The position numbers and the translations under genes were made by a program. From an uncultured virus (IMG/VR IMGVR_UViG_3300030099_005341) (taxonomy: Duplodnaviria; Heunggongvirae; Uroviricota; Caudoviricetes), in IMG/VR virus record IMGVR_UViG_3300030099_005341: a DNA stretch of 20,000 bases, one strand, 5' to 3'. This document shows, piece by piece, positions 1,072 to 12,841 of this stretch. Below the pieces are notes generated by a model. That model was given only the letters and a program-made list of their open reading frames with translations, had not been told where the DNA came from and ran no database searches. Numbering within the stretch: position 1 is the first letter of the stretch; each line of letters starts with the position of its first letter.

Positions 1072-1379
1072 TAAAACGGTAAGTCTTCATCAGCCGCAGC
1101 AGGAGCAGGTGCCGGTGCTGATTGATTATCCATTGGAGCTCTGTCAACATTGTTGCCATCAGTCCAAACTACTTTAACATTACCAAGGTAAGTCTTAGCT
1201 GCTTTAGCATCTCTTTCTTCCTTAGTTTGTTCAACTACAACTGGGCCTTGATTACCAAACTGATCTGGTTCGTTGTTCAGTGTAATTGTAATTGGTAAGT
1301 ATTTACCTTTTTTACCAGTAAAGATTTTATCTTTAGGTATGTTATTAAGGTTAATACTAGTTTTAATAATACTTGCCAT
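1071..1379 (-). CDS. Putative ssDNA-binding protein
   Basis: 102 aa with a beta-rich core (KGKYLPITITLN...YLGNVKVVW), a flexible PA linker and an acidic DEDLPF tail typical of SSBs. Lies between the recombinase and primase genes. Confidence 0.65.
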   Translation of the reverse strand: MASIIKTSINLNNIPKDKIFTGKKGKYLPITITLNNEPDQFGNQGPVVVEQTKEERDAKAAKTYLGNVKVVWTDGNNVDRAPMDNQSAPAPAPAAADEDLPF

Positions 1380-1381
1380 AA

Positions 1382-1537
1382 TTAATAATTATTTATTTGG
1401 TTAAACATTCTTTTTAATTGTTTTTTTGTAACATTAGTATTTCTTCTAATATTATCTACAGCCTTTAAATGACTTTGGTTTTTGTAGAAATTATTAGTAC
1501 TAGTCTTTACACCTGTTACATCACATACTTTTTTCAT
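1382..1537 (-). CDS. Small hypothetical protein (51 aa)
   Basis: Hand-translated MKKVCDVTGVKTSTNNFYKNQSHLKAVDNIRR...; fills the gap between co-directional genes. Confidence 0.65.
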   Translation of the reverse strand: MKKVCDVTGVKTSTNNFYKNQSHLKAVDNIRRNTNVTKKQLKRMFNQINNY

Positions 1538-1546
1538 AGAATAGGT

Positions 1547-2278
1547 TTAAAGGGTTTTGCTTATGAAATACTGTTTAGGATCAAACTCCTTAGTCTTATA
1601 AAACAAGTCATAAGCTTCACTTGCTTTACTCACTTTTTCTTCTCCACGTTCATAAAACTGTGGTGAACAGTCGAACATACCAATTTGATGGGTGTTCTTA
1701 TCTATAACTATAAATAACATTTCATATCCAAACAACTTGCTATAGATATACGCTTGTGAATCATAGTTAAATTTAGACGCTGACCATTGAAACTTCTCAA
1801 TGTCTGCTGTTGTTTTTAAGTCAATAATTAGTTTTTCATCGTGGTTAACAATATCTGCCTTACCTTTCCATTTGTTATTAAATAACTCTGTAATCATGGG
1901 TACTTCATACTCAACATTACCTAGCTGTATAAGATCTCTACATATATCGTTAGCCATAACTTTTTCTCTCATCAACTCAATCGCATCTACTTCGTGTTGA
2001 AGTAAACAAAGCTCACCACCACTAACATCTTTGTATTCTTTAGTATTTCTAGTGGTTGATTTCACAATTTTAAACCTATCTATTTTATCTGGTTCTAATA
2101 TACATGTGTGAAAATATCCACCAACTAAAAATGCTGGTGATGGTTTGCTAGGTTCAAAAGCTCTTAACGGGTCTTTTAATAATTTACCTACGTGAGAGTT
2201 AGATAAAAATTGATTACCAAAATCACCGTAATATTCTTCGTCGTTTCTAAGCTTTTGTAATATCTTTTCTTTGTTCAT
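1547..2278 (-). CDS. PD-(D/E)XK exonuclease (RecE/exonuclease VIII, DUF3799-like)
   Basis: Motifs LSNS, G.YFHTCILEP, KGKADIV...IIDLKTT and YDSQAYIY; adjacent to an ERF annealase. Confidence 0.85.
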   Translation of the reverse strand: MNKEKILQKLRNDEEYYGDFGNQFLSNSHVGKLLKDPLRAFEPSKPSPAFLVGGYFHTCILEPDKIDRFKIVKSTTRNTKEYKDVSGGELCLLQHEVDAIELMREKVMANDICRDLIQLGNVEYEVPMITELFNNKWKGKADIVNHDEKLIIDLKTTADIEKFQWSASKFNYDSQAYIYSKLFGYEMLFIVIDKNTHQIGMFDCSPQFYERGEEKVSKASEAYDLFYKTKEFDPKQYFISKTL

Positions 2279-2798
2279 CTGTTATTTTATATTTAGATTC
2301 AATAGCTTGAATATTACCTCCCGCTTTTATATATTCTTTAGCTTTAGTTATTTGTTCTTTAGTTATAGCTGGTTTAGCAGCTTGTTTAATTTTGTTTACA
2401 GCTTTAGATTTACCATTGTTAGTTGCATCACTATCTTGCGTGTCATCAATTAAGAATAAATTACCTAAAGCGTACTTCTTTCCATAAGAAGATGCTGCAC
2501 CAAACTTCTGTGGCATTTGCATACCTTTTGCACTCATATCAACTCCAACAACAGCTGAAGCGTCTAATTCATTTTCTCCATCAGATATTATTGCTGTTGT
2601 TTTTAGTATTGGACAAGGATCTATTTGTATTAGATCTTCTTTAACAACAACACTGACACCTAATTGCAATAAAAAAGGCTTTGTAGCCTCTAATATATCT
2701 TCAGCTGATCTGAAGTAGTATTTACCAAACGAATTATACCTAGACTTTTTAGATTTAAACTTCGTTTGTATGTTTGCTAATTTTTCATTTATTGTCAT
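2247..2798 (-). CDS. erf: ERF-family single-strand annealing protein
   Basis: N-terminal KLANIQ...YNSFGKYYFRSAEDILEA and the ERF signature QKFGAASSYGKKYALGNLFLIDD..DSD. Confidence 0.9.
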   Translation of the reverse strand: MTINEKLANIQTKFKSKKSRYNSFGKYYFRSAEDILEATKPFLLQLGVSVVVKEDLIQIDPCPILKTTAIISDGENELDASAVVGVDMSAKGMQMPQKFGAASSYGKKYALGNLFLIDDTQDSDATNNGKSKAVNKIKQAAKPAITKEQITKAKEYIKAGGNIQAIESKYKITDEQRKDITKA

Positions 2799-2821
2799 AT
2801 TATTTTATTTTATTCTATATA

Positions 2822-2852
2822 TATAATTACATATTTGTTATACGCTTTTAAA
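2822..2852 (-). promoter_or_regulatory. Candidate middle/late promoter (TTTAAA-N15-TGTAATTATA)
   Basis: Intergenic between the sigma and ERF genes; resembles TTTAAA-N14-TGTGATTATA at 13183-13212 (+). Only two copies, in AT-rich DNA. Confidence 0.4.
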
Positions 2853-2870
2853 CTTATTTTTCGCTCTAAC

Positions 2871-3620
2871 TTACAGAAAATCAATCACTTGCGAGTGATC
2901 TACATTCTCTATTAATTTGTCTACAGCTTGCTTTTTTAACTGTGAAACACGCACGTAAGAACTACTACCTTCCATACCTAATTTAGCTGCAATTTCACTA
3001 GCAGAATGCTTGTCACAATCAAGACCATAACTAAGTCTTAGTACTTCATATTCTTTATCATTTAAGTGTTGTTTTAATAAACTTTTTAAATAAGAGTTTA
3101 ATAACACTTGGTTATATGGTTCTGATTCATCAGGTATTTGAAACACTAAATCATCTTGACCTTTAGCATCTATACTTAAGAATATAGAGTTAAAGAACAT
3201 TGATACAGCTTTTTTGTCTTTACTTTTTCTCATGCTATTTGTAACGTGTTCAGGTATTCTTATTGAACCTCTATTTATATCTATAGCTCTACGTATTGCT
3301 CCTCGTATTCTTTTAGACAAGAAACTTTTTAATGTTTTTTCTTGATCTTCAGATTTTTCTAATGTGTCTTTATCTAATCTATCAATAGCTTTGATTAATC
3401 CTATACTTCCTTCTTGTATGAAATCCATAACAGTCATTACACCACTAGCTTGTTGTGATGTAGCAAACTTTCTAGCTAAGTTTTCTACCAACGGTAAAAA
3501 TAACGTTGTTAATTCTTCTTTAGAATAATCTGTCCAACTGTTTTGTTTTTTAACTCTTTTAATTGCTGATGTAACGTCAGCTTTATATTTTATATAGTTT
3601 GGTATATTATAGTATTTCAT
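2871..3620 (-). CDS. Phage-encoded sigma70-family RNA polymerase sigma factor
   Basis: Region 2 (LVENLARKF...DFIQEGSIGLIKAIDR, RIRGAIRRAI), IRIPEHV, and a region 4 HTH (LNDKEYEVLRLSYGL...EIAAKLG...VRVSQLKKQA). Confidence 0.92.
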   Translation of the reverse strand: MKYYNIPNYIKYKADVTSAIKRVKKQNSWTDYSKEELTTLFLPLVENLARKFATSQQASGVMTVMDFIQEGSIGLIKAIDRLDKDTLEKSEDQEKTLKSFLSKRIRGAIRRAIDINRGSIRIPEHVTNSMRKSKDKKAVSMFFNSIFLSIDAKGQDDLVFQIPDESEPYNQVLLNSYLKSLLKQHLNDKEYEVLRLSYGLDCDKHSASEIAAKLGMEGSSSYVRVSQLKKQAVDKLIENVDHSQVIDFL

Positions 3621-4053
3621 TGTTTTGTTCTTTATAAATTAGTTCTAATGTTGAGGGCCAATCTAAACATCTCTGTGCAGTGCCGAACCACAACCATGTA
3701 CCTTTAAAATCTGGTTGGCCTCGCCATCTACTGTCATCAATAAGTATATCGCCTATTAATAGATCTTTTCTATGTGTTAATATTAATTTACGTTTTAACC
3801 ATGGAAAATGTTCAGCTAACCATTCACGTTTAGCTGACCACATATCTGGTCTATCCCATGGAGGAGTTGAAGCTATGTATATATCAAAATCTTGATTTAG
3901 CTTTATAAGTGCTTCTTGTGCACCCGGCATAAGCTCTAGATTTCTATAGTCTACATATTTATCAGGTCTGTGTGTATAACCGCCATCATCTGCTGCTTTC
4001 TTAAAATTAGCTATAACACCGTCCATATCTATATATATTATTTTTTTATTCAT
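3607..4053 (-). CDS. 5'(3')-deoxyribonucleotidase (NT5C, HAD superfamily)
   Basis: IYIDMDGV motif I, ASTPPW, KREWL..HF, K..L.GDILIDD. Start moved to the ATG at 4053, which overlaps the upstream stop as ATGA. Confidence 0.9.
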   Translation of the reverse strand: MNKKIIYIDMDGVIANFKKAADDGGYTHRPDKYVDYRNLELMPGAQEALIKLNQDFDIYIASTPPWDRPDMWSAKREWLAEHFPWLKRKLILTHRKDLLIGDILIDDSRWRGQPDFKGTWLWFGTAQRCLDWPSTLELIYKEQNNEIL

Positions 4054-4667
4054 ATCTGTTTGTTTAATAATTCTTTTTCTCTTTTTAAATCTGCACACAT
4101 ATTTCTATGTATTGTTCTACTTGAGCAGTCTAATAGACCTGCTATTCTAGCAATAGTAATTTTCTTACCCATGTCATGCATATCTATCATACACTGGTAT
4201 ATATCATCTGCATGTATACGTTTTGTTCTACCTATCAACTCGCCAACTATACGTAGTTTTTCTTCTTTACTAACTCTAGTAAACGGTTTAAATATAACCT
4301 TACGTAGTTTATTTCTAGGCGGCTTATCTAAATCTAACATACTAACCTCATATACTATCTTGCGTAGCAGGTCAGCGTGTATAGCAAAACTGACGAAGCC
4401 ATTGTCCTTGTGAGATATAACCTCTGCCAGTCTCATGAACTGATCTTGGTCAAGATCTGGGTTTAAATACCATAGTACTAACAAGTGCCACTTGAGAGAT
4501 TTGTATGTAGTAATTTTAGCTTTACTTCTAAATAATTCATAACATTCGTAAGTACCATTTACATAAAAAGAATATACTTCATTATCAATATCTGGCTTAT
4601 CATTAATAGGATGTCTTCTATATACGATGCGATTGTTATTTAAATAATTTAAATTTCTTTGTGACAT
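4050..4667 (-). CDS. Putative DNA-binding protein with C-terminal HTH
   Basis: 205 aa; the C-terminal KITIARIAGLLDCSSRTIHRN fits a helix-turn-helix. Its start codon lies inside a TGTGACA...TGTCACA inverted repeat. Confidence 0.7.
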   Translation of the reverse strand: MSQRNLNYLNNNRIVYRRHPINDKPDIDNEVYSFYVNGTYECYELFRSKAKITTYKSLKWHLLVLWYLNPDLDQDQFMRLAEVISHKDNGFVSFAIHADLLRKIVYEVSMLDLDKPPRNKLRKVIFKPFTRVSKEEKLRIVGELIGRTKRIHADDIYQCMIDMHDMGKKITIARIAGLLDCSSRTIHRNMCADLKREKELLNKQI

Positions 4668-4705
4668 TAGGGTATTACTATTTATTATTAGGGGCTGTTG
4701 TCACA
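4660..4705. promoter_or_regulatory. Inverted-repeat operator-like site TGTGACA-N32-TGTCACA
   Basis: TGTGACA at 4660-4666 and TGTCACA at 4699-4705. A related site at 12574-12620 shares TGACATTAG...GGCT..TGTCACA. Confidence 0.6.
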
Positions 4706-4815
4706 GTCCCCTGGTTTCTTGGTTTTAATTTTGCTATTATTATTCTTGTTTCATTATCATTAGGATATTTAATTTTATTAAATTCCTCAATACGTTTCTT
4801 TAGGTCTTTGTTCAT
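4678..4815 (-). CDS. Small hypothetical protein (45 aa)
   Basis: Hand-translated MNKDLKKRIEEFNKIKYP...APNNK*; fills the gap in the operon. Confidence 0.5.
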   Translation of the reverse strand: MNKDLKKRIEEFNKIKYPNDNETRIIIAKLKPRNQGTVTTAPNNK

Positions 4816-5269
4816 ATAATTTTTCGGTTTTAGGGTTTGCTACTATGTGTTTCTCGCCTATGTAATAATTCCAATAAGCTTGTACACTACATTTATCTTT
4901 ATATTCATCTGGCATTGCTTGTGGTGGTTGTGTAAAACCATTATCATATATACCACCTGGTACATATTTTAACACGTCAGCACATTTAGTTATTGATAAA
5001 TGTATTTTACCATAACGTTTATTGTACTCACGACCTAAAGCAATCATGTGATTATATAACCATTCATAATGAGGTTTAGATTGTCTACACCATATAGTTG
5101 ATGGATGGTTCTTGTGAGCTATTTTGTAAGGTACATCTTTACCATGTATATCTACATGATGAGCAGTACATAGCATTTGAGCTGACTCAAGTATCATCTT
5201 AACCACATGTTTATTATATTGTAGTCTAGCTGCTTTATCAGGGCATTTGTCTAAGTAAAATATATTCAT
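4787..5269 (-). CDS. Pyrimidine dimer DNA glycosylase/endonuclease V-like family protein
   Basis: MNIFYLD...KHVVKMILESAQMLCTAH, YK.AHKNHPSTIW, EYNKRYGKIH and PPQAMPDEYK...AY..YY match the widespread phage MNIF/HxNHP family, usually annotated as DenV-like. Confidence 0.75.
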   Translation of the reverse strand: MNIFYLDKCPDKAARLQYNKHVVKMILESAQMLCTAHHVDIHGKDVPYKIAHKNHPSTIWCRQSKPHYEWLYNHMIALGREYNKRYGKIHLSITKCADVLKYVPGGIYDNGFTQPPQAMPDEYKDKCSVQAYWNYYIGEKHIVANPKTEKLYEQRPKETY

Positions 5270-5370
5270 GATTGTTCTTTAATTATTTTTTCTAATACTT
5301 TAACTAGTTTAGTTATAGCCTTTGTTAATTGGCTAATGTCTCTATAAAATTGTTGTTCATTTCTATTCAT
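5266..5370 (-). CDS. Small hypothetical protein (34 aa)
   Basis: MNRNEQQFYRDISQLTKAITKLVKVLEKIIKEQS; its start overlaps the ligase 3' end and its stop overlaps the next ATG. The longer track start lies inside the ligase gene. Confidence 0.5.
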   Translation of the reverse strand: MNRNEQQFYRDISQLTKAITKLVKVLEKIIKEQS

Positions 5371-6298
5371 AATCTCTAATACATTTAAAAAATGGGTGTC
5401 TGTAGCTATTAGCTTTAGTTCTCTCAAAGAATGTAAAGGTAGCTGTTGCTTTGTGATCCACATACCACTGAGCTTTGTGTAATAAAGCTCTAAGATCTTT
5501 GTAGTTATAACCTTTACCTGGTGGACAACCGAATCTAATACCTTCTGAGTCTATCATAAGGAATTTACCTAACGTGCCTTTACGTTTACCTTTACCTTCG
5601 ACAAAACCTACAATAGTAGCCTCTGCGTCGTGAAAGTCTTTAAATTTTTGTAAATTGTAAGAACGTTTTTGTTCGTATAAGGCATTTTTTCTTAGTATAG
5701 TACCTTCGTAGCCTGTAGATAGGTTATTCTTGTGTAAATCTTCAGCGTGAGACTTAGAATATACTAATCCATATTTAAGTACTTCAATAGATGGAGATCT
5801 ATGTGGTAAGCCTTGTAGCTGTTGAGCCCACGGTGTTGTGTGAAAGTCATTTTTGATATAAGCATTTCTAGTTGCAAAATCATAATGTTCATTTTCTTGT
5901 TCTGGTATAAAGTCATAACAATAAAACTTAATCTTTTCTGCAGCTTCTTTTCTATGCTCGTCTGTTGGTTTTGTTTTTCTAACAAGAGATATTATTTTCT
6001 CGAAGTCATCTTTTAGTTCGTGATTGTACAATTCGCCATCAAGAACTCTATTAGGATATTTTTGAAAATAAAACTTAAGTTGTTCAAGTATATGATTTAC
6101 ATTTTTAAACTCTTTACCTGTACGTGAATATGCTACAACTACATCTTCTCTTGGTTGTGTTCTTCTTTCATATTGTATTAAACATCTAACACCATCAAGC
6201 TTTGGTTGTACATATATACCTTGTCTGTATTCTATCTCTGTTATTGGTTTTTTACTAGCGTTGTAAGCTAGCATAGGTTTTACTTTTAATTTACTCAT
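5363..6298 (-). CDS. ATP-dependent DNA ligase
   Basis: KPMLA, motif I QPKLDGVRC, LDGELY, YCYD, GYEGTILR, KRSYNLQKFK, and an OB fold ending in YRHPFF..IRDYE. Confidence 0.95.
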   Translation of the reverse strand: MSKLKVKPMLAYNASKKPITEIEYRQGIYVQPKLDGVRCLIQYERRTQPREDVVVAYSRTGKEFKNVNHILEQLKFYFQKYPNRVLDGELYNHELKDDFEKIISLVRKTKPTDEHRKEAAEKIKFYCYDFIPEQENEHYDFATRNAYIKNDFHTTPWAQQLQGLPHRSPSIEVLKYGLVYSKSHAEDLHKNNLSTGYEGTILRKNALYEQKRSYNLQKFKDFHDAEATIVGFVEGKGKRKGTLGKFLMIDSEGIRFGCPPGKGYNYKDLRALLHKAQWYVDHKATATFTFFERTKANSYRHPFFKCIRDYE

Positions 6299-6584
6299 TA
6301 CTTAATTTTGTTTTTAATCTTTTTATCATTTTGTTAATGATTGCACATTTCTCATATTCTTCTCTGTCTTGAAACATGTTCATTATAGTCATTAGTTTAG
6401 CTAGTTCACCAACGTCTTTGTCTTCGTCTGTCATATCTAGCTTGTCGTAGTCTTTTGATAGTTTAGCTGCGTGCATTGCGTCATGCCAATCTAACATACT
6501 TTGTAGATTAACTATTTTAGCGACAACTTTGTTAGCTATTTTATCACAAAGTCTATCAAAATTTTCTTGTTCTTCTTTATTCAT
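6291..6584 (-). CDS. Hypothetical protein with C-terminal UVR-like motif
   Basis: The C-terminal EEYEKCAIINKMIKRL resembles the UvrB/UvrC coiled-coil motif. First gene after a conserved promoter copy. Confidence 0.65.
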   Translation of the reverse strand: MNKEEQENFDRLCDKIANKVVAKIVNLQSMLDWHDAMHAAKLSKDYDKLDMTDEDKDVGELAKLMTIMNMFQDREEYEKCAIINKMIKRLKTKLSNE

Positions 6585-6600
6585 ATATTTATATTTATAT

Positions 6601-6632
6601 TATTATCCTTGCTCGATCGTATTTAGCATGTA
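6601..6632 (-). promoter_or_regulatory. Conserved phage early-promoter motif, copy 1
   Basis: Minus strand TACATGCTAAATACGATCGAGCAAGGATAATA; same 32-bp layout as six other copies. Confidence 0.8.
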
Positions 6633-6965
6633 TTTATCTAATAGTTTTTGTGGTTCACCTACGAATATACACTCAAAGTCATCACCGTTACCCATACCTT
6701 CAAATATACTTATCCACGTTGTTTTACCTGGTGTCTGCCATATATAATATATATATTCTAAATCACCGTGTTTTGTGTCAAGGTATTCTATTTCCCATCC
6801 TTCTACCTTCATTGAATCTAACAATGACTCTGCTATTTCTACACCTAATCCTTCTGGATAACCATCACTATGATTATAGAACTGTGCGTGTATTTGTTTT
6901 GGATGTTCACTAAACGATACTCCTTCTTCTCGTGTAGCAAATCTAATTTGTGCTCTTGTACTCAT
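6603..6965 (-). CDS. Conserved phage hypothetical protein (MSTR...YxHxDGYP type)
   Basis: MSTRAQI...FYNHSDGYPEGLG...HGDLEYIY. Start set at 6965 (TAATG overlap). Confidence 0.8.
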   Translation of the reverse strand: MSTRAQIRFATREEGVSFSEHPKQIHAQFYNHSDGYPEGLGVEIAESLLDSMKVEGWEIEYLDTKHGDLEYIYYIWQTPGKTTWISIFEGMGNGDDFECIFVGEPQKLLDKYMLNTIEQG

Positions 6966-7054
6966 TATTCTTTCCATTTAGTTTTGGTAAAACAATCTAT
7001 AATACAAACTATTATAAATAGTAACCAAAAAATTGTTATTATATTTATTTCCAT
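6965..7054 (-). CDS. Small membrane peptide (29 aa)
   Basis: MEINIITIFWLLFIIVCIIDCFTKTKWKE; TAATG overlaps at both ends. Confidence 0.55.
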   Translation of the reverse strand: MEINIITIFWLLFIIVCIIDCFTKTKWKE

Positions 7055-7320
7055 TAATCTAATAATACATAGTATGCATCAGGGTTATTTTTTCTAAACC
7101 AGTCAAGACCTTTTCTAAGTTCATTGACTATTTTAGGATTAGTGTTAAAACCTCTCATTTCATACACCATTGTAGCACCCATTATAAAATCATACATGGA
7201 TAACTCTATATTATTTAATTCATATTCCTCTCCTGAAAATCTGTTTTGAACAGTATTTCCTCTACTATAAACAGTTCCTTTGAACCATTTAGGTAATTCT
7301 TGTTTAGTTTTCGTTTTCAT
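7054..7320 (-). CDS. Hypothetical phage protein
   Basis: 88-aa ORF in a tightly packed operon (V.NRFSGE..EL...ELS.YD...GLDWFR.NNP.AY.VLLD). Confidence 0.8.
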   Translation of the reverse strand: MKTKTKQELPKWFKGTVYSRGNTVQNRFSGEEYELNNIELSMYDFIMGATMVYEMRGFNTNPKIVNELRKGLDWFRKNNPDAYYVLLD

Positions 7321-7582
7321 AATATTTTTCTTTTAATGTTTCTATAATATGTCTACCTGATGCCGTGTGAAAACCATAACTATGTGTATGTAATTCGGGT
7401 ATTGGATCATTAAAGAACAATAACTTCATTAGATCTATTGGTTTTACACTTACAAACTCATTGTGCTTAAACTCTTCATACATATCGTTACAGGCAGCGG
7501 CGATAGCTTCTGTATTGTGTCTTATTTCTTCATCTGTTCGCCAAGACAGGTATTCTTTTACCTTTTTACTTGTTAATTTCAT
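7304..7582 (-). CDS. Hypothetical protein
   Basis: 92-aa ORF overlapping both neighbours in the same direction. Confidence 0.75.
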   Translation of the reverse strand: MKLTSKKVKEYLSWRTDEEIRHNTEAIAAACNDMYEEFKHNEFVSVKPIDLMKLLFFNDPIPELHTHSYGFHTASGRHIIETLKEKYYENEN

Positions 7583-7838
7583 TTATTATTAATTTAAATT
7601 CTTTATATTTATCTTGTTTTAATCTTTCTTTAGCATATTCAATAGGATTCTTTTGATGAGTTTTAAATGAACAATAACTATCTGGTCCATCTTCTAGTAT
7701 CTCTACGTTACCATAACCTGGCCAGTGTTTGTTATTACTAAGTGTAACTATTATTTCTTTTCTAACAGGTACATTTGAATGGTCCATGTTAAACCATATA
7801 TGCTTTAAAGCTTCTCTATGTTTTCTTATTTTATCCAT
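7566..7838 (-). CDS. Hypothetical protein
   Basis: Start reassigned to MDKIRK (ATG 7838, A-rich context); the track's GTG start at 7898 falls inside the structured RNA region. Confidence 0.7.
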   Translation of the reverse strand: MDKIRKHREALKHIWFNMDHSNVPVRKEIIVTLSNNKHWPGYGNVEILEDGPDSYCSFKTHQKNPIEYAKERLKQDKYKEFKLIINEINK

Positions 7839-7860
7839 AATTATATTTTTTAAGTAAAAA

Positions 7861-8141
7861 CGAGGGTTAGTGCCGTTCGGTGCGAGCCTAGGAGACACTT
7901 ACTAGTACACTACCTGTCGTCTTTATATTTTTTATATTTACGAGGTCGGGCAGGTGTGGTTCTTGTTATGCGGGGAATCTAAACATTAAGACCGCCGACT
8001 AATAAACATTTGCTTTATCCTGCCGTTTCGCCAAGTGAGTAAGATGAAATAACTTGTTCACTGTGGGCTCACTTCTGAACGAAGTTACATCGCCTCCCCA
8101 AATTATTCCTACACGTCTCACGCGCTACCACCCTCACCTCG
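7861..8141 (-). ncRNA. Candidate large structured non-coding RNA (unclassified)
   Basis: About 46% GC (hand count, 7861-8150) with no credible ORF. Terminal pairings 7862-7867/8130-8135 and 7892-7896/8115-8119, several internal helices and two potential pseudoknots. Strand inferred from flanking genes and a minus-strand U-tract, not certain. Confidence 0.7.
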
Positions 8142-8154
8142 TGTGTATAGCATT

Positions 8155-8535
8155 TTATGCTTTGTTTAATTGCTCGTTTGTTGGCTCGTCTTCTGGACAA
8201 TCAACCTCTTTAAATAAGTTATGCACTTTTTCAACTATCATTTCAGTTAATTCGTAAGTGTCATTTAAGTCTATACTTTCCAGTTGTACTCTACCATCAT
8301 AATCAAGACTAAAGTCAACTTCATAGCTGTCAGCATCACTGAAACTATAGTTTTCAACAGCTTTCTCAATAGCTTCTTGAATGTCATCAAGTTGAGCTGG
8401 TGTTAATGCTGGTTTATTGTAGTCATCTATTTGCTTTTGCAATATAGATATTTGTTGCTTATAATCATTTAGTTTGTCGTTAGTTTCGTTTTGTAAAAGC
8501 TCTAACGCAGCTTTTTTGTTTTCTAATTCTTGCAT
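8155..8535 (-). CDS. Hypothetical acidic coiled-coil protein
   Basis: ORF from the track. Start probably MQELENK (8535), because the ATG at 8553 lies only 4 nt from the promoter -10 element. Confidence 0.75.
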   Translation of the reverse strand: MQELENKKAALELLQNETNDKLNDYKQQISILQKQIDDYNKPALTPAQLDDIQEAIEKAVENYSFSDADSYEVDFSLDYDGRVQLESIDLNDTYELTEMIVEKVHNLFKEVDCPEDEPTNEQLNKA

Positions 8536-8556
8536 ATTATTTAATTTAATCATTTG

Positions 8557-8588
8557 TATTATCCATTAGTAATCGTATCTAGTATGTA
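8557..8588 (-). promoter_or_regulatory. Conserved phage early-promoter motif, copy 2
   Basis: Minus strand TACATACTAGATACGATTACTAATGGATAATA. Confidence 0.85.
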
Positions 8589-8762
8589 TTATGGTACTAT
8601 AAATTCAATAGCATCTTCACCTATTCCTTCACCATTTTTAGTTACTTCTTGATTAGGGCAAACACCACAGTTTACTATATGTTCTAGTAATTCGTTTAAA
8701 CTATCAAACTCTTCATTGAAATAAGATGATAGTAATCCCCATTTATTCGTACCACACTCCAT
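8589..8762 (-). CDS. Small hypothetical protein (57 aa)
   Basis: Hand-translated MECGTNKWGLLSSYFNEEFDSLNELLEHIVNCGVCPN...EFIVP*; the stop abuts promoter copy 2. Confidence 0.65.
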   Translation of the reverse strand: MECGTNKWGLLSSYFNEEFDSLNELLEHIVNCGVCPNQEVTKNGEGIGEDAIEFIVP

Positions 8763-8782
8763 ATACTTTAACTCCTTTTACG

Positions 8783-8947
8783 TTACACATTAATTTCTTT
8801 TGCTTTATTTTCTTCTCGGTTAACAGGCTTTTGTCCTGATACTTTGGATTTTTGCTGTTCAGCTTTCTTTTTTTTGTCATACTCTTCTATATTTTTAATT
8901 AATTTTTCGTCTTGTCCTAATGTTTTTTTAAAAAGTTTTCTTATCAT
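8783..8947 (-). CDS. Small hypothetical protein (54 aa)
   Basis: Hand-translated MIRKLFKKTLGQDEKLIKNIEEY...; starts 2 nt after the upstream stop. Confidence 0.5.
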   Translation of the reverse strand: MIRKLFKKTLGQDEKLIKNIEEYDKKKKAEQQKSKVSGQKPVNREENKAKEINV

Positions 8948-8948
8948 A

Positions 8949-9470
8949 TTATATTATTTTATATCTTTCATTATTTACTATCACTGATAAATTTTCAACA
9001 GCAGGTTTAGCGTCAATATTTTCTTGTAATCCAGCACTATAACCTAGTTTTTCTGCGTCTTCATATTTCCATTTAGGTACAAACTCACCATTTGATAGCT
9101 TGTTAGCTTGACCAATGTAATAGTTTTTAAGACAAAAGCTTATTAAGTATTCTAATCTATCTTGCTCGTTAGGTATCAGTACGCAACTACGAGTTGAAAA
9201 CTGAGTATATAAAGTTCTACCCATACTATCTTTTTTACCTGAATCAAAATACTCTGGTTCACCTTCACATCTTTTGTTTATTTGCCAATTCGGACAATAT
9301 CCACCTGCTTTAGTACGTCTTACGTAACCACTAGCAAAACTCGCCACGTGTATTTCACTACCATACTGATCTTTGACTGGTAACTTAAACTCACGTGTAC
9401 CATTTTTCTTTTGTCTTTTAGTTGTAACTTCTTGTATATCAAGTAGTTGTAATGTTTCTTTAATATTCAT
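8949..9470 (-). CDS. Hypothetical phage protein
   Basis: 173-aa ORF (EVTTKRQKKNGT..F...ASFASGYVRR...WQINKR). Confidence 0.8.
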   Translation of the reverse strand: MNIKETLQLLDIQEVTTKRQKKNGTREFKLPVKDQYGSEIHVASFASGYVRRTKAGGYCPNWQINKRCEGEPEYFDSGKKDSMGRTLYTQFSTRSCVLIPNEQDRLEYLISFCLKNYYIGQANKLSNGEFVPKWKYEDAEKLGYSAGLQENIDAKPAVENLSVIVNNERYKII

Positions 9471-9621
9471 TTTTGTATATATTTGTTAATTTACTCATAT
9501 AATTATCTTCTTTCAATAGTATTTCTACTAATCTTATTATAGCTAAGTGCTCACTTGGTGCTTCAATTGTCATTCCACAACCAAAGTCACTTTTATCTTT
9601 ATATTCTATATTGTACTTCAT
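9460..9621 (-). CDS. Small hypothetical protein (53 aa)
   Basis: Hand-translated MKYNIEYKDKSDFGCGMTIEAPSEHLAIIRL...; ATGA overlap with the upstream gene. Confidence 0.6.
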   Translation of the reverse strand: MKYNIEYKDKSDFGCGMTIEAPSEHLAIIRLVEILLKEDNYMSKLTNIYKNEY

Positions 9622-9848
9622 CTTCTATTTTTATAATCTAAATCTTTGTTATGTGTAAGAGTATCTATCATATTTTTACTGTTTGGAAATACACTTTCGT
9701 GTATGTATATGTAGCCTTTCATCTTTATTATATCTTGCTGGTCTATCTCTTCGTACTTATCAGGTAATTGATGTAGTAAATGAGGTATAAACCTTTGCTT
9801 GTTTACTGTTAGCACGCCGTTCATGCTGTTGATTTTAAATTTATTCAT
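9618..9848 (-). CDS. Hypothetical protein
   Basis: 76-aa ORF directly downstream of promoter copy 3. Confidence 0.75.
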   Translation of the reverse strand: MNKFKINSMNGVLTVNKQRFIPHLLHQLPDKYEEIDQQDIIKMKGYIYIHESVFPNSKNMIDTLTHNKDLDYKNRR

Positions 9849-9863
9849 ATTTGTATTTTATAA

Positions 9864-9895
9864 TATTATCCATTTACTGTCTTATTCAGTATGTA
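9864..9895 (-). promoter_or_regulatory. Conserved phage early-promoter motif, copy 3
   Basis: Minus strand TACATACTGAATAAGACAGTAAATGGATAATA. Confidence 0.85.
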
Positions 9896-10177
9896 TTAAT
9901 CTAACCCATCTCTGTGGTTACCTCTACTGTCTGTAAAGCGTATTCCACCTTTTTCTTCTAGCTCTATAAGCGCGTGTATAGCATTTTGAAGCGGATCTGG
10001 TTCTTGTTTGATTTCGTTTTGCCACAACATTTCTGCATCTGATTCTATCTCTGATAGTATATCGGGTGACAAATCGTTGTAGTAACCCAAGTGATGTTCT
10101 TGACCGAAACTATCTTCAACGTATACACTGTAAACAGTATTTCCTTGATATTTACTTATATGTATTTTTCTTGGCAT
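9896..10177 (-). CDS. Hypothetical protein
   Basis: 93-aa ORF; the stop abuts promoter copy 3. Confidence 0.75.
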   Translation of the reverse strand: MPRKIHISKYQGNTVYSVYVEDSFGQEHHLGYYNDLSPDILSEIESDAEMLWQNEIKQEPDPLQNAIHALIELEEKGGIRFTDSRGNHRDGLD

Positions 10178-10200
10178 ATTATTCTTATTTAATTATTATT

Positions 10201-10413
10201 CTATCCTAACATTGTACCATAACCTCTACGTCGAGTTAACCTAGCTATTTGAGCAGCGTCACTGCTTGACATAATCTGTATGGAATTACCGGTCTTATGG
10301 TTAATTAATGGAGCGCAGCCATATTGCTCGGTCGTGGAGCAGTTGACACACACTTTGTAGCCGAGATTAACACGACCTTGAGGTATTGTACTGTTACATT
10401 TATTACATTTCAT
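10201..10413 (-). CDS. C4 zinc-finger protein (DksA/TraR-type finger)
   Basis: CNKC..TIPQGRV.LGYKVCVNC matches the CxxC-x3-IP-x2-R-x6-8-CxxC layout; followed by NHKTGN.IQI. Confidence 0.7.
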   Translation of the reverse strand: MKCNKCNSTIPQGRVNLGYKVCVNCSTTEQYGCAPLINHKTGNSIQIMSSSDAAQIARLTRRRGYGTMLG

Positions 10414-10434
10414 ATTATATATTTTTTACATATA

Positions 10435-10466
10435 TATTATCCAATCACTATCTTATTCAGTATGTA
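10435..10466 (-). promoter_or_regulatory. Conserved phage early-promoter motif, copy 4
   Basis: Minus strand TACATACTGAATAAGATAGTGATTGGATAATA. Confidence 0.85.
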
Positions 10467-10631
10467 TTATGGTGTTATTATTTCAGGATTATCGTGTACC
10501 ATCCACTCACAATTACTTAAATTATGACCAAGTCCACTTAAATATTCTTCATAATCTTGTAAGAATGGTTGTATCGCTTCATATTGAAATACTTTACCCA
10601 CTTCAAAATCTAATACTGTTATATACTTCAT
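10467..10631 (-). CDS. Small hypothetical protein (54 aa)
   Basis: Hand-translated MKYITVLDFEVGKVFQYE...GHNLSNCEWMVHDNPEIITP*; ATGA overlap upstream, and the stop abuts promoter copy 4. Confidence 0.7.
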   Translation of the reverse strand: MKYITVLDFEVGKVFQYEAIQPFLQDYEEYLSGLGHNLSNCEWMVHDNPEIITP

Positions 10632-10765
10632 TTCTTTTTATGTTTTATTTTTCTTGTATATTTCTTCTTGTTCTTGTATATGGAACTCGACGGTGGTGAG
10701 ACACCTAAATCTATGTCCACCTTCCGCCTAACGCTCCTCTTGTGTTTGTTTGTAAGTTTATTCAT
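10628..10765 (-). CDS. Small basic protein with ArfA-like C-terminal motif (45 aa)
   Basis: Hand-translated MNKLTNKHKRSVRRKVDIDLGVSPPSSSIYKNKKKYTRKIKHKKK. Confidence 0.65.
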   Translation of the reverse strand: MNKLTNKHKRSVRRKVDIDLGVSPPSSSIYKNKKKYTRKIKHKKK

Positions 10766-10828
10766 CTTTCATCAGTGCACCATAACACATAGCGGTTATG
10801 AGTAATAATATTAACCATTCACCCATAA

Positions 10829-11194
10829 CTATAATTTTACTATGAATCTTGAAGGACCAACTATTAATTTTAGTGGACCTGGATCGGTGTAGTATACGTG
10901 GTCACTCGCGTTTAGTACGTCTTGCCACACTTCTCCATCAGGATATATTATAGTTACTTTTCTTATTGACCACCATCTGTCGTCAAACAAGTGCAAACAT
11001 TTTACTTCATTTTCTGGTACATCCATAGTGTACTCACCTTTATGTAGTAAAGAGTCTAACAGGTAATCTGTATCGTAACACCATTCTAGTATTTCTTTCT
11101 TAGTTACCATCGTACAAGTTGTATCAAACAACTGTTGACTATAACTATTTAGTGCAAGTGCAAGTGCTGCTACACTTAATGTTATTTTCTTCAT
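10829..11194 (-). CDS. Secreted hypothetical protein
   Basis: Signal peptide MKKITLSVAALALALNSYS followed by Q, typical of Bacteroidota signal peptidase I substrates. Confidence 0.75.
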   Translation of the reverse strand: MKKITLSVAALALALNSYSQQLFDTTCTMVTKKEILEWCYDTDYLLDSLLHKGEYTMDVPENEVKCLHLFDDRWWSIRKVTIIYPDGEVWQDVLNASDHVYYTDPGPLKLIVGPSRFIVKL

Positions 11195-11206
11195 AATTTA
11201 TTATTT

Positions 11207-11548
11207 TTAATCTATTTCATCACAATTCTGACAATCAATTTGTCTTTGTACTTCAGTTTTACTGTATACTTGTTGTCTATAATTAGGACACTCAAAGTCT
11301 CTACACAAGTTCATTTGTATATCTTCTAATTTACTTAGTATATCGAGTAAATTGTGTACATATATTTCCGCCATTTCTACAGGAAAACCATTAAATTTAT
11401 CTTCTACAATACCTACTCTCATTGACTCAATCATATCTTCAGTAGATATTGATATTTCTTTTACTAATTCTTCATTTGTTGGTGGATTTGTACAAAACCC
11501 ACTTATCGCAAGAGATAGTGCTGCTACACTTAGTGTTAATTTTTTCAT
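11207..11548 (-). CDS. Secreted hypothetical protein
   Basis: Signal peptide MKKLTLSVAALSLAISGFC; C-terminal CQNCDEID. Confidence 0.75.
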   Translation of the reverse strand: MKKLTLSVAALSLAISGFCTNPPTNEELVKEISISTEDMIESMRVGIVEDKFNGFPVEMAEIYVHNLLDILSKLEDIQMNLCRDFECPNYRQQVYSKTEVQRQIDCQNCDEID

Positions 11549-11559
11549 AGTTATATATT

Positions 11560-11670
11560 TTATCTACATCCATAATTATAGTTACCGTACGCTGGACACG
11601 GTGAATATCTACTCGACCCACAAGATGATAGTAATACTATCACTGCAATAATTGCTAATAATTTTTTCAT
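11560..11670 (-). CDS. Small lipoprotein (36 aa)
   Basis: Hand-translated MKKLLAIIAVIVLLSSC-GSSRYSPCPAYGNYNYGCR; lipobox LSSC. Confidence 0.75.
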   Translation of the reverse strand: MKKLLAIIAVIVLLSSCGSSRYSPCPAYGNYNYGCR

Positions 11671-11708
11671 TGTTAATTTGATTTAGTTATACATTTATTT
11701 TATAAGTT

Positions 11709-11791
11709 ATATGAGTAGTACGTTTACTACTGGGATACTTTGTCTTATTAAAACTTGAGTTGATTATCAAGTGTCCAGAGACTACTCATAT
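11709..11791. other. Stem-loop closed by an 11-bp perfect inverted repeat
   Basis: ATATGAGTAGT (11709-11719) / ACTACTCATAT (11781-11791), with inner near-complementary arms CTGGGATACTT / AAGTGTCCAG. Confidence 0.65.
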
Positions 11792-11849
11792 TAGTTGTAG
11801 TGGTGAGAATCGAACTCACATATCACAGTGATATTACCATTGACTACAT
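11792..11849 (-). ncRNA. Minimal tRNA-like element (acceptor stem + T-arm, no canonical D stem or anticodon arm)
   Basis: Minus strand TGTAGT-CAATGGTA-ATATCA.CTG.TGATAT-GTGAG.TTCGATT.CTCAC-C-ACTACA-ACTA. Confidence 0.65.
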
Positions 11850-11888
11850 TGACATTCGTATTATTTATACTCGCTAAATGTTTCTCAA

Positions 11889-12029
11889 CTACGAGTGTGC
11901 TTTGATCGCTGACATTATAGTGAAGACAAATACTGCTACGAATCCACTAATATACACTGCTGTCAGAACTATAGGGAAGTAGTGATTGAACACCACTTTA
12001 GCCTTTCTTTTTAATAAGCGCAACTTCAT
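11889..12029 (-). CDS. Small membrane protein (46 aa)
   Basis: Hand-translated MKLRLLKRKAKVVFNHYFPIVLTAVYISGFVAVFVFTIMSAIKAHS; TAATG coupling to the upstream gene; one TM segment. Confidence 0.6.
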   Translation of the reverse strand: MKLRLLKRKAKVVFNHYFPIVLTAVYISGFVAVFVFTIMSAIKAHS

Positions 12030-12265
12030 TATAGTAACTCTTTACCTCTTAGTACTACTGGAATATTGTTAGTTGCAGTGTACGACTTGTATTTAGCGAA
12101 ACATGCTAACTTTTCTAGTGTATCTTTCATGATAGAATATACTTTGTCATGATTGTACTTTACTGTATCACCTTTTTTGTTAGTGAATTCGATTACTTGA
12201 TTCTTGCCTATCAATGACTTACGCACTACGAATCTTTTACTTTTTAAAACATTTTCTTTTGACAT
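12029..12265 (-). CDS. Hypothetical early protein, paralog of 12623-12841
   Basis: KRFVVRKSLIGKN.VI.F.NKKGDTVKYNHDKVY...CF.KYKSYT.TNNIP. Confidence 0.85.
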   Translation of the reverse strand: MSKENVLKSKRFVVRKSLIGKNQVIEFTNKKGDTVKYNHDKVYSIMKDTLEKLACFAKYKSYTATNNIPVVLRGKELL

Positions 12266-12309
12266 AATTTTATTTTTTAGTTATTAATTTATTTTATTAG
12301 TTACATTTA

Positions 12310-12341
12310 TATTATCCATTACTTATCGTATTTATTATGTA
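12310..12341 (-). promoter_or_regulatory. Conserved phage early-promoter motif, copy 5
   Basis: Minus strand TACATAATAAATACGATAAGTAATGGATAATA. Confidence 0.85.
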
Positions 12342-12402
12342 TACTAAAGTAGGTAATTTGTTTAGTTGTTATTTGAGTTACCACTACTACTCCACACTCT
12401 CT

Positions 12403-12519
12403 CTAAGCGTATGATAAATAAGTAAATAGTTTCTCATAACATTTAGTTTTACTTCTACTTACCATTATTAGTTGTCCGTAGTGAATTAGTTTATAGTATT
12501 TACCATTATATCTTATCAT
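12403..12519 (-). CDS. Small hypothetical protein (38 aa)
   Basis: Hand-translated MIRYNGKYYKLIHYGQLIMVSRSKTKCYEKLFTYLSYA; directly downstream of promoter copy 6. Confidence 0.55.
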   Translation of the reverse strand: MIRYNGKYYKLIHYGQLIMVSRSKTKCYEKLFTYLSYA

Positions 12520-12543
12520 ATCTTTATATTTTATTTACATTAT

Positions 12544-12575
12544 TATTATCCATTAGTAGTCGTATTTAGTCTGTA
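12544..12575 (-). promoter_or_regulatory. Conserved phage early-promoter motif, copy 6
   Basis: Minus strand TACAGACTAAATACGACTACTAATGGATAATA. Confidence 0.85.
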
Positions 12576-12620
12576 TGACATTAGCCAATTAAGTAGATAC
12601 AGTAACTGGCTAGTGTCACA
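12574..12620. promoter_or_regulatory. Inverted-repeat operator-like site TATGACA-N33-TGTCACA
   Basis: 16-bp arms TGACATTAGCCAATTA / TAACTGGCTAGTGTCA (2 mismatches, 11-nt spacer), abutting promoter copy 6; related to 4660-4705. Confidence 0.65.
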
Positions 12621-12622
12621 CT

Positions 12623-12841
12623 TTACCTGCAGAAAGTTGGTATGTTATTCGATGAAGTGTAAGACTTATATTTCTTGAAACAGTTCATGTTATCGAATCT
12701 TTCTTTATTCTTGTTATATACATCGTCATGATTGTAGGTAATTGTATCACCTTTCTTATTAACGAATGTTATTACTGTGTTAGTACCGATTAAGGATTTT
12801 CTGATTACAAATCTTTTTGTAGTTAATTCATTTACTTTCAT
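12623..12841 (-). CDS. Hypothetical early protein, paralog of 12029-12265
   Basis: KRFVIRKSLIGTN.VI.F.NKKGDTITYNHDDVY...CF.KYKSYT.SNNIP. Confidence 0.85.
   Translation of the reverse strand: MKVNELTTKRFVIRKSLIGTNTVITFVNKKGDTITYNHDDVYNKNKERFDNMNCFKKYKSYTSSNNIPTFCR

Follow-up and report, generated by a model that had tools for sequence, protein, structure and literature searches.

Positions 7839 to 8154 of the 20,000-nucleotide (nt) stretch of IMG/VR record IMGVR_UViG_3300030099_005341 (the window), which comes from an uncultured virus of the class Caudoviricetes, raise a simple question: what is carried by a non-coding gap that is far richer in guanine and cytosine (GC) than the AT-rich phage DNA around it? 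The gap, which had been pointed out in a first-pass annotation, is real. Segment 7861-8141 has a GC content of 46.6%, compared with 32.7% for the 20-kilobase (kb) window as a whole, a value reached by 1 of 1972 sliding 281-nt windows, and the gap is flanked by minus-strand open reading frames (ORFs) of 132 amino acids (aa; 8155-8553) and 90 aa (7566-7838). The first-pass annotation read it as a single RNA of about 290 nt, with paired ends and two pseudoknots, on a strand that was left open. Our comparison with related phages indicates instead that the gap consists of two independent structured RNA modules, A and B, both on the minus (gene-sense) strand. That we are dealing with a real, conserved, gene-sense structured RNA family with the anatomy described below is, in our judgment, very probable.

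Relatives of the 132-aa protein led to 11 IMG/VR loci (numbered here with the prefix L), and a related-loci search with the 90-aa protein gave no relatives. When the minus-strand gap was compared with these 11 loci by BLAST, three short conserved blocks, separated by unrelated sequence, were recovered in six of them. The blocks lie upstream of the gene for the 132-aa homologue in those six loci (the gene is downstream of module A in L001, L002, L006, and L008), whereas in the window they lie downstream of it. In L007/L009, the same comparison yielded a separate 76-nt stretch, 97% identical, on the downstream side of the gene homologue. The 15-nt core word then had 83 matches in IMG/VR, 39 of which had the 3' block within 250 nt; after removal of duplicates, these 39 loci left 37 unique sequences, the window included. 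Three variants added by later scans (L026, L149, and L184) completed an alignment of 40 sequences, i.e., the window and 39 loci. With the covariance model R1, exactly one copy of module A is found in the window.

This alignment bears on two helices of module A. The closing helix, P1, shows compensatory changes at 7/7 pairs, with 95% of its cells paired. The second helix, P2 (GGCAGG/CCUGCC), is paired in 40/40 sequences, with changes on both sides at two of its six pairs, both in L184 (AGUAGG/CCUACU), and one G.U pair in L026. The structure as a whole is 97.7% paired, compared with 29-53% when the partners are slid by one to three columns, and none of 500 shuffles reached the observed value on any of five measures. 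Among homologues, covariation is found for P1 at every pair and for P2 in one sequence; the comparison does not support the closing stem, the second arm, or either pseudoknot of the first-pass annotation. A conserved ORF across module A was not found: 21 of the 37 modules, including that of the window, are interrupted by stops in every one of the six frames, and the inserts vary freely in length.

The same alignment bears on the strand. P1 contains 8 G.U cells versus 2 A.C cells, and the A.C cells are located at helix ends. Given this excess, the G.U pair in P2 of L026, the orientation of module A (always that of the flanking genes), and the run of U's after the last module of each cluster, the strand is resolved to minus: the RNA is read from the window's minus strand.

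In this orientation, module A consists of short constant blocks arranged around two insertion sites, a and b (Table 1). A core of about 45 nt is identical across phages whose neighbouring protein is 46-87% identical. At site a, ten members have only 3-4 nt, others have a plain hairpin, and sixteen, including the window, have a larger conserved insert, domain I; the length of site b ranges from 5 to 107 nt across the family. Family members measure 65-284 nt, the smallest being L015:579-643. In addition to P2, the GUGG of the junction block can pair with the CCAC that stands one nucleotide upstream of the P2 3' strand, so that a pseudoknot with A-rich loops would form. The letters of GUGG and CCAC are invariant in the 40 sequences, and the single junction variant, GCGUGG in L079, keeps GUGG. 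The longer word GGGUGG has two competing partners, CCAC-CC and CUGCCC, both disfavoured, on the thin basis of one sequence, by the same variant. The pairings of this conserved pseudoknot-capable core, P2 and GUGG/CCAC, differ from those first proposed.

What, then, of the long-range pairings that had suggested one RNA? The complementary words are present (GAGGGT 7862-7867 with ACCCTC 8130-8135, AAGTGAG 8033-8039 with CTCACTT 8068-8074, and the arms at about 8050-8087), and in the window phage and in L061 the two modules are adjacent, so that pairing between them is physically possible. However, B occurs without A in the complete genome G012 (L009), and A occurs without B in 10/10 genomes tested, five with domain I and five without. 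The proposed closing stem would join the 3' stem of module B to the first junction of module A, i.e., parts of modules that occur independently in relatives. The proposed second arm (7908-7958) would join the P1 3' strand of A to the 5' strand of B across the AU-rich linker. These helices compete with two that covary, P1 and B's own stem, and their complementarity is explained by the likeness of B's 5' strand to the 5' region of A. In the minimum-free-energy fold of the minus strand, A and B form separate structures and neither of these helices is used. Both proposed pseudoknots involve phage-specific cassettes without counterpart in other loci. For the one in the long hairpin, AAGUGAG repeats the 5' strand of domain I and is thus complementary to CUCACUU, and since no other phage carries the cassette 8043-8091, this pairing is not a feature of the family. 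The hairpins 8043-8091 and 7970-7996 themselves are real predicted hairpins and fall exactly at the two variable insertion sites. Altogether, a single RNA of about 290 nt with paired ends and two pseudoknots seems to us scarcely credible.

Table 1. Features of the two RNA modules and copies of the promoter-like motif, in window coordinates
Feature	Position	Strand	Remarks
Module A	7940..8142	minus	203 nt; order P1, junction, site a, core, site b, 3' block, P1
P1 5' strand ACGAGGU	8142-8136	minus	7/7 pairs with changes on both sides
Junction block GGGUGGU	8133-8127	minus	follows GA; nearly invariant in 40 sequences
GUGG, proposed pseudoknot 5' strand	8131-8128	minus	inside junction block
Insertion site a, filled by domain I	8030..8126	minus	domain I and phage-specific cassette
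Domain I	8126-8030	minus	closing helix GUGAG 8121-8117 / CUCAC 8039-8035; conserved internal-loop strands
Domain I cassette in the window	8110-8046	minus	phage-specific; hairpin 8091-8043
Core block ACGGCAGGAUAAAGC	8026-8012	minus	GGCAGG 8024-8019 is the P2 5' strand
Insertion site b	7963..8011	minus	A-rich linker and phage-specific hairpin cassette, hairpin about 7996-7970
3' block GAACCACACCUGCCC	7962-7948	minus	AGAA-CCAC-R-CCUGCC-C
CCAC, proposed pseudoknot 3' strand	7959-7956	minus	part of 3' block
A7955	7955	minus	variable purine linker between CCAC and P2 3' strand
CCUGCC, P2 3' strand	7954-7949	minus	part of 3' block
P1 3' strand ACCUCGU	7946-7940	minus	one nucleotide after 3' block; 7/7 pairs with changes on both sides
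AU-rich linker between modules A and B	7921..7939	minus	AAAUAU-type linkers join modules in L005, L024, L029, L055, L061
Module B	7920-7860, U5 7860-7856	minus	long imperfect hairpin; 8 homologues aligned
Module B inner hairpin	7898-7880	minus	conserved; loop palindrome CCUAGG 7892-7887
Promoter-like motif copies	12911-12897, 12574-12560, 12340-12326, 10465-10451, 9894-9880, 8587-8573, 6631-6617	minus	bipartite motif scan

Module B is 100% identical over 67 nt between the window and L007/L009, whose adjoining protein is 71% identical to that of the window. In the eight-sequence alignment its outer stem changes in a compensatory manner (UAGUG/CACUA, UAAUG/CAUUA, UGAGUG/CACUCA), and an inner helix of three base pairs (bp) has U:A, A:U, or G:C at one pair and G:C or A:U at the next; these changes were read by eye from the alignment and not counted by a tool. 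Besides standing without A in G012, module B comes before A in L032, after A in the window and in L061, and about 1 kb away in L001 and L006. It is likely the terminator of the RNA cluster: its closing stem is followed by U5, but its "loop" of about 40 nt leaves it unlisted in a scan for consensus intrinsic terminators. An interaction between module B and domain I (AGUAAG 7903-7898 with CUUACU 8043-8038) was considered and rejected, B being missing from 5/5 domain I genomes and from 5/5 genomes without it.

Palindromes centred on CTAG are found in module B at 7892-7887 and 7906-7901. The loop palindrome CCUAGG becomes UCUAGA in L005, L032, and L061, with its self-complementarity kept, which could mean loop-loop dimerisation or a site at the DNA level, and may be a single evolutionary event.

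Domain I, too, is a module in its own right. Its 18 distinct instances share the strands GYGAGRYGNGU and UCUUAC-UYRC, and the closing helix comes in three versions (GUGAG/CUCAC in 12, GCGAG/CUCGC in 5, and GUAAG/CUUAC in 1), so that two different pairs are compensated. Thirteen instances, that of the window among them, are located within module A; domain I is also found alone in a stem followed by a U-tract in L007/L009, whose complete genome is without module A, and at the opening of a longer neighbouring RNA in L005, L010, L055, and L089.

The hairpin cassettes that fill the insertion sites are exchanged between them. Ten cross-site BLAST pairs connect site a and site b of different phages, as in the 54/54 nt shared by site b of L001 and site a of L031, and cassette sequences are 95-100% conserved at different positions. 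Cassettes are also nested inside one another. A recurrent adaptor stem, formed by two facing CCGA-AAC-UCGG strands with a symmetric 3x3 AAC/AAC internal loop, is found at site b of L002, L005, L011, L019, L024, L026, L051, and L089, sometimes with other hairpins in its apical loop. The cassette within the window's own domain I has no counterpart in the other loci compared. In DNA sequencing run X1, contigs have 8045-8110 replaced by 12 or 30 other letters, and the depth on conserved blocks is 1194 and 3016, compared with about 134 on the flanks; this 9- to 22-fold local excess marks module A as abundant in marine samples and, taken together with the alternative inserts, suggests that many cassette variants coexist in the sample. 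One 32-nt cassette was followed through five genomes and occurs exactly once in each, placed in site a or site b of module A or within a neighbouring RNA. For this cassette, the explanation as a mobile or proliferating repeat was rejected.

Could these modules be known RNAs? The 4227 covariance models of Rfam 15 gave no match at the gathering threshold across the whole window. At E<=10, positions 7700-8300 returned only a 47-nt microRNA-like hairpin (24.7 bits, compared with a gathering score of 70) and SCARNA7 noise, and at E<=1 nothing fell on the element in 12 homologous loci, minimal members, as well as ribozyme, riboswitch, and CRISPR-repeat models, included. ARAGORN called no tRNA or transfer-messenger RNA (tmRNA) in the window and none on the element in 44 loci (15 + 29), its sole tRNA calls being tRNA-Asp in L026/L109. 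The earlier failure to recognise a tmRNA, RNase P, or intron is thereby borne out, as is the description of an unclassified phage structured non-coding RNA. Module A resembles a tRNA or tmRNA in its 7-bp closing stem and T-arm-like neighbours, but has no T arm, anticodon arm, or CCA.

Among phage RNAs, the T4 tRNA gene cluster encodes two small stable RNAs, species 1 and 2. They are alike in being stable non-tRNA RNAs beside tRNA or tRNA-like genes in the early region; to our knowledge, however, they do not carry exchangeable hairpins. The PeSL (promoter early stem-loop) cassettes of T4-type phages place a stem-loop and an early promoter at gene boundaries and are tied to modular shuffling, whereas module A occurs once per genome, and its invariant structured core goes far beyond a stem-loop. 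GOLLD and ROOL, both Rfam families, are described as large, ornate RNAs of phages and prophages whose function is not known (PMC12286853). They share with module A their phage origin, their frequent position beside tRNA genes, and a mix of conserved and variable parts; they differ in size (about 500-800 nt versus 65-284 nt), and module A, which has no Rfam match, is defined by a small core, invariant and pseudoknot-capable, and by two sites at which nested hairpins are exchanged. We found no description of such an RNA in the literature searched. A catalogue of 8,495 candidate RNAs from IMG/VR may list it; the catalogue's searchable tables contain neither its motifs nor six of its contig numbers, the alignment files lying outside that search (PMC10690425).

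Module A is present in exactly one copy in 6/6 A-bearing genomes of about 70 kb (CheckV completeness 100%). Among 185,579 prokaryotic genomes there were four pattern matches, and none carries the module A motif; by this measure module A appears restricted to phages. The gene downstream of it differs among loci and may be the 132-aa coiled-coil homologue, another small ORF, a further RNA module, or a canonical tRNA-Asp (GUC), which follows immediately, 5 nt after the module in L026 (678-752) and about 25 nt after it in L149. T-arm-like hairpins not called by ARAGORN stand on the same strand as module A in 14 of 37 loci. In at least 19 IMG/VR contigs of 45-80 kb, only 1-8 kb separate the RNA island from one end of the contig, which could reflect a fixed position near a genome terminus or assembly breaks near sequence shared by co-occurring phages.

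The expression data consist of assembled contigs only and cover 7400-8700 (1301 bases). In marine metatranscriptome run X18, a single contig is identical to 7911-8065 and crosses the 3' end of module A uninterrupted. X20, from the same study, has one contig on 7940-8045; its flanks are unlike the window on both sides, which points to a relative that carries different cassettes. Within 7400-8700, the flanking genes have no contig in either run, but stretches without contigs are uninformative. In X19, an oligo-dT run, coverage is limited to part of the 132-aa gene and comes from a relative.

How might these RNAs work? We put the best explanation as a whole, a two-module RNA island with the family anatomy above and a module A that acts in trans, at about an even chance. 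Taken by itself, the functional part, in which module A is a trans-acting scaffold or decoy that presents hairpins to protein partners, is a tentative proposal. Transcription of the modules would be shared with the leftward early genes. Cleavage in the AU-rich linkers, or by RNase P in loci with a tRNA downstream, would then release the modules, and their closing stems would keep them stable. Module A would then act in trans, with its invariant core recognised by one conserved partner or serving just as a nuclease-resistant fold, and with the exchangeable hairpins as independent binding modules. Two features lead us to this proposal. Because the core is invariant while the proteins have diverged to 46-87% identity, it may be recognised by a conserved macromolecule or have to meet the demands of a difficult fold. 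Because the cassettes are conserved and yet mobile, the hairpins may have independent functions that do not depend on position, and this exchange makes a scaffold or decoy more attractive among the functions first suggested (ribozyme, decoy or sponge, scaffold). If the anatomy holds, the family represents a new class of phage structured RNA with an unusual mode of evolution, in which the core hardly changes while the cassettes move between two sites, nest, and are shared with neighbouring RNAs. It would also offer a compact natural scaffold, 65 nt in its minimal form, with two permissive sites and a set of conserved hairpins for partner fishing.

Several observations weigh against this account or parts of it. 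Thermodynamic folding of the gap is no better than chance: single-sequence folding gives z = -1.14 (minus strand) and -0.54 (plus strand), 13/100 and 32/100 shuffles, respectively, fold equally well, and for four minimal members the z values, -0.8 to -1.9, are weak. The covariation of P2 comes from one divergent sequence, L184, and the pseudoknot stem is without covariation; three alternative pairings of the 3' block are separated solely by the single variants L079 and L026. Because exact-word patterns were used to collect the family, its apparent invariance is inflated. A pattern with the six P2 letters left free returned 11 matches, 9 of them true and all with GGCAGG; leaving both P2 strands free gave 89 matches, with 15 canonical true members and one divergent one, L184; and a search for further L184-type members gave 103 matches, of which one was true and came from L184's own contig. 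The invariance of the core is thus partly built in, since the searches used exact words, yet the P2-free patterns gave GGCAGG except in L184. One complete relative, G012, has no module A, which is therefore dispensable or replaceable. The RNA contigs lend weak support to a stable RNA, being two low-depth contigs that carry information on neither strand nor ends and could derive from DNA carry-over. Finally, the combination of P1, U-tract, and promoter-like motif fits a cis-acting boundary element equally well.

This last alternative deserves the closest attention. It holds that A and B are elaborated intrinsic terminators, RNA stabilisers, or hairpins for processing, positioned where an early transcription unit ends and similar in kind to RNase III sites or to the cassettes of stem-loop and promoter found between early genes of phages, with the inserted hairpins as tolerated passengers. 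We consider it doubtful but a serious contender. P1 is followed by a U-run within 1-2 nt in 23 of 37 sequences (a hand count from the 3' flanks), and where another module follows, the U-tract usually comes after the last one, and then a conserved promoter-like motif before the next gene; the other copies of this motif in the window are also preceded by stem-loops. The occurrence of domain I alone in a stem with a U-tract (L007/L009) and the complete relative without A point the same way. However, a terminator or stabiliser needs no core of about 45 nt that stays identical across phages with a 46-87% identical neighbouring protein, nor would it be expected in one copy per genome when there are many gene boundaries. 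In the window (where AAAUAU follows) and in L005, L024, L029, L055, and L061, P1 is not followed by U's, and cassette sequences at different positions remain 95-100% conserved. Should the modules nevertheless be ornate terminators or processing elements, they would be of much lower interest.

The promoter-like motif itself consists of ACAnnCUnnAnAnGA, 8 nt, and GGAUAAU. Seven copies are located on the minus strand of the window, each shortly upstream of an early ORF (Table 1). In most related loci the motif comes after the RNA cluster. In the window, the first half alone, at three mismatches or fewer, has 20 matches versus 7.7 +/- 2.9 expected. Near 7838, UUUUUACUUAAAAAAUAUAAUUAUGGAUAAAAU, after the module B U-tract, resembles a degenerate copy of the motif. 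The listed ATG of the 90-aa ORF lies inside the second half of that degenerate copy, and the true start may be a downstream ATG.

Returning to the scaffold or decoy proposal, a bolder version is that the early RNA island is built like nested dolls, in which the pseudoknotted scaffold and the neighbouring modules (domain I, module B, and tRNA-like RNAs) accept a shared library of single-copy cassettes that recombination carries between positions and phages. The scaffold would be a platform for multivalent display, and the hairpins would serve as decoys or binding sites for different host factors (a nuclease, a defence sensor, or an RNA-binding protein) that are swapped in an arms race. We regard this version as unlikely; if true, the nested island would be an RNA-based counterpart of the protein anti-defence gene cassettes.

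Module A might also be a new catalytic RNA, e.g., a self-cleaving ribozyme that processes the early transcript or neighbouring tRNAs and tRNA-like RNAs, which we consider improbable. An invariant pseudoknot-capable core with optional peripheral stems is reminiscent of small ribozymes, and module A adjoins tRNA-Asp in L026 and L149 and T-arm elements in L079 and L080, the 14 of 37 loci with T-arm-like hairpins adding to this. A precedent exists in the theta ribozymes, which are described as related to the hepatitis delta virus (HDV) ribozyme and as adjoining phage tRNAs (PMC10879173). The likeness is one of small pseudoknotted phage RNAs next to tRNAs; set against it, in L026 and L149 the tRNA is downstream of the element, the helices come in an incompatible order, there is no place for a catalytic-C junction, and module A matches no covariance model of the HDV family. 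The HDV-like fold, a nested double pseudoknot with the strand order P1-P2-P3-P1'-(P1.1)-P4-J4/2(C)-P2', does not fit module A by reasoning from the anatomy, no descriptor search having been run: what would pair with the first block is found in the last one, and no variable P4 site comes after that. Self-cleaving ribozyme classes in Rfam likewise gave no match at E<=10 on 7700-8300 or at E<=1 on the 12 loci. In addition, the X18 contig runs uninterrupted from 8065 to 7911 across the 3' end of module A.

We find it more improbable still that module A is a ligand-binding aptamer, i.e., a riboswitch in which a ligand-stabilised P1 and the U-tract terminate transcription before the next gene. Its compact pseudoknot-capable core, A-rich loops, and closing P1, with the U-tract directly after it in minimal forms, would suit such a role. 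PreQ1-II and SAM-II are H-type pseudoknot aptamers, and module A as modelled resembles them in being closed by a short stem, in its two crossing helices, and in A-rich loops, which could line the grooves; it differs from both in matching no covariance model, in the 1-nt linker between its 3' strands and its long middle loop, and in having no conserved regulated gene. A coherent set of downstream genes, as expected of a riboswitch, is not seen: the genes differ and belong to no conserved class, and the promoter-like motif stands between them and the module. The "terminator loop" would reach 270 nt, P1 in the window is followed by A's and then by module B, and no riboswitch in Rfam matches.

An element acting at the DNA level (a recombination hot spot, a shuffling cassette, an origin, or protein-binding palindromes) rather than as RNA is hardly tenable, since, although modules and cassettes are clearly reshuffled among phages, module B contains CTAG palindromes, and the island is often just 1-8 kb away from the end of its contig, G.U is tolerated on one strand only (8 versus 2), compensatory changes keep helices spanning up to 270 nt, the orientation to the genes is constant, and RNA contigs fall on the element.

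A candidate protein partner was also considered. A lysine-rich ORF of 45 aa (8880-8746, minus strand), which overlaps a listed 57-aa ORF (8589-8762), is 73% identical to an ORF of about 47 aa that ends right before module A in at least 10 related loci. As a partner of module A this small basic ORF was rejected: Pfam gives no match for it, and it does not strictly accompany module A, being present in 1 of 5 genomes and missing from a complete A-bearing genome.

No cultured phage is close to this one. Neither the gap nor the surrounding 5.2 kb has a blastn match among GenBank phages, the DNA ligase of the window is at most 35% identical to those of cultured phages, and the public sequencing runs that contain the stretch are labelled marine metagenomes. 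The gene set includes a primase/helicase, an Erf-type annealing protein, an exonuclease, a sigma factor, the DNA ligase, and GroEL/GroES; genes are on the minus strand for 1-12841, with plus-strand ORFs from 13257 on.

Other RNA elements accompany the modules. A longer unclassified RNA stands beside module A in L005 (2600-2960), L055, L072, L089, L092, and L011 (2548-2800); it opens with domain I (a B-like hairpin in L072), continues with the conserved strands GACACUAGCUCCUUAAGCGAUAGC ... GUGCUGUUGGGAGC, and has a tRNA-like T arm at its 3' end. The one scanned locus of this kind (L013, L005 region) had no Rfam match. T-arm hairpins are found at the 3' end of the longer RNA in L005, L011, L055, L072, L089, and L092 and beside module A in L079/L080. 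They are similar to one at 11819-11803 in the window, a perfect T arm (GUGAG-UUCGAUU-CUCAC) that belongs to a tRNA-like mini-element on the minus strand (11848-11796) with a 6-bp acceptor-like stem and a short hairpin. For this mini-element ARAGORN made no call, and Rfam gave only a local match to the tmRNA T arm (E 0.023, 12.3 bits).

Next to it, at about 11791-11709 on the minus strand, lies a conserved hairpin RNA with an 11-bp closing stem ("module C"). The region is 93.5% identical over 139 nt (11682-11820) in L010 and 83% identical over 11718-11782 in L018, where the inner hairpin changes in a compensatory manner around a conserved loop (CUUGA/UCAAG versus UCUAG/CUAGA). A further non-coding stretch, 12425-12532, between the ORFs 12029-12265 and 12623-12841, is 88% conserved over 108 nt with L010.

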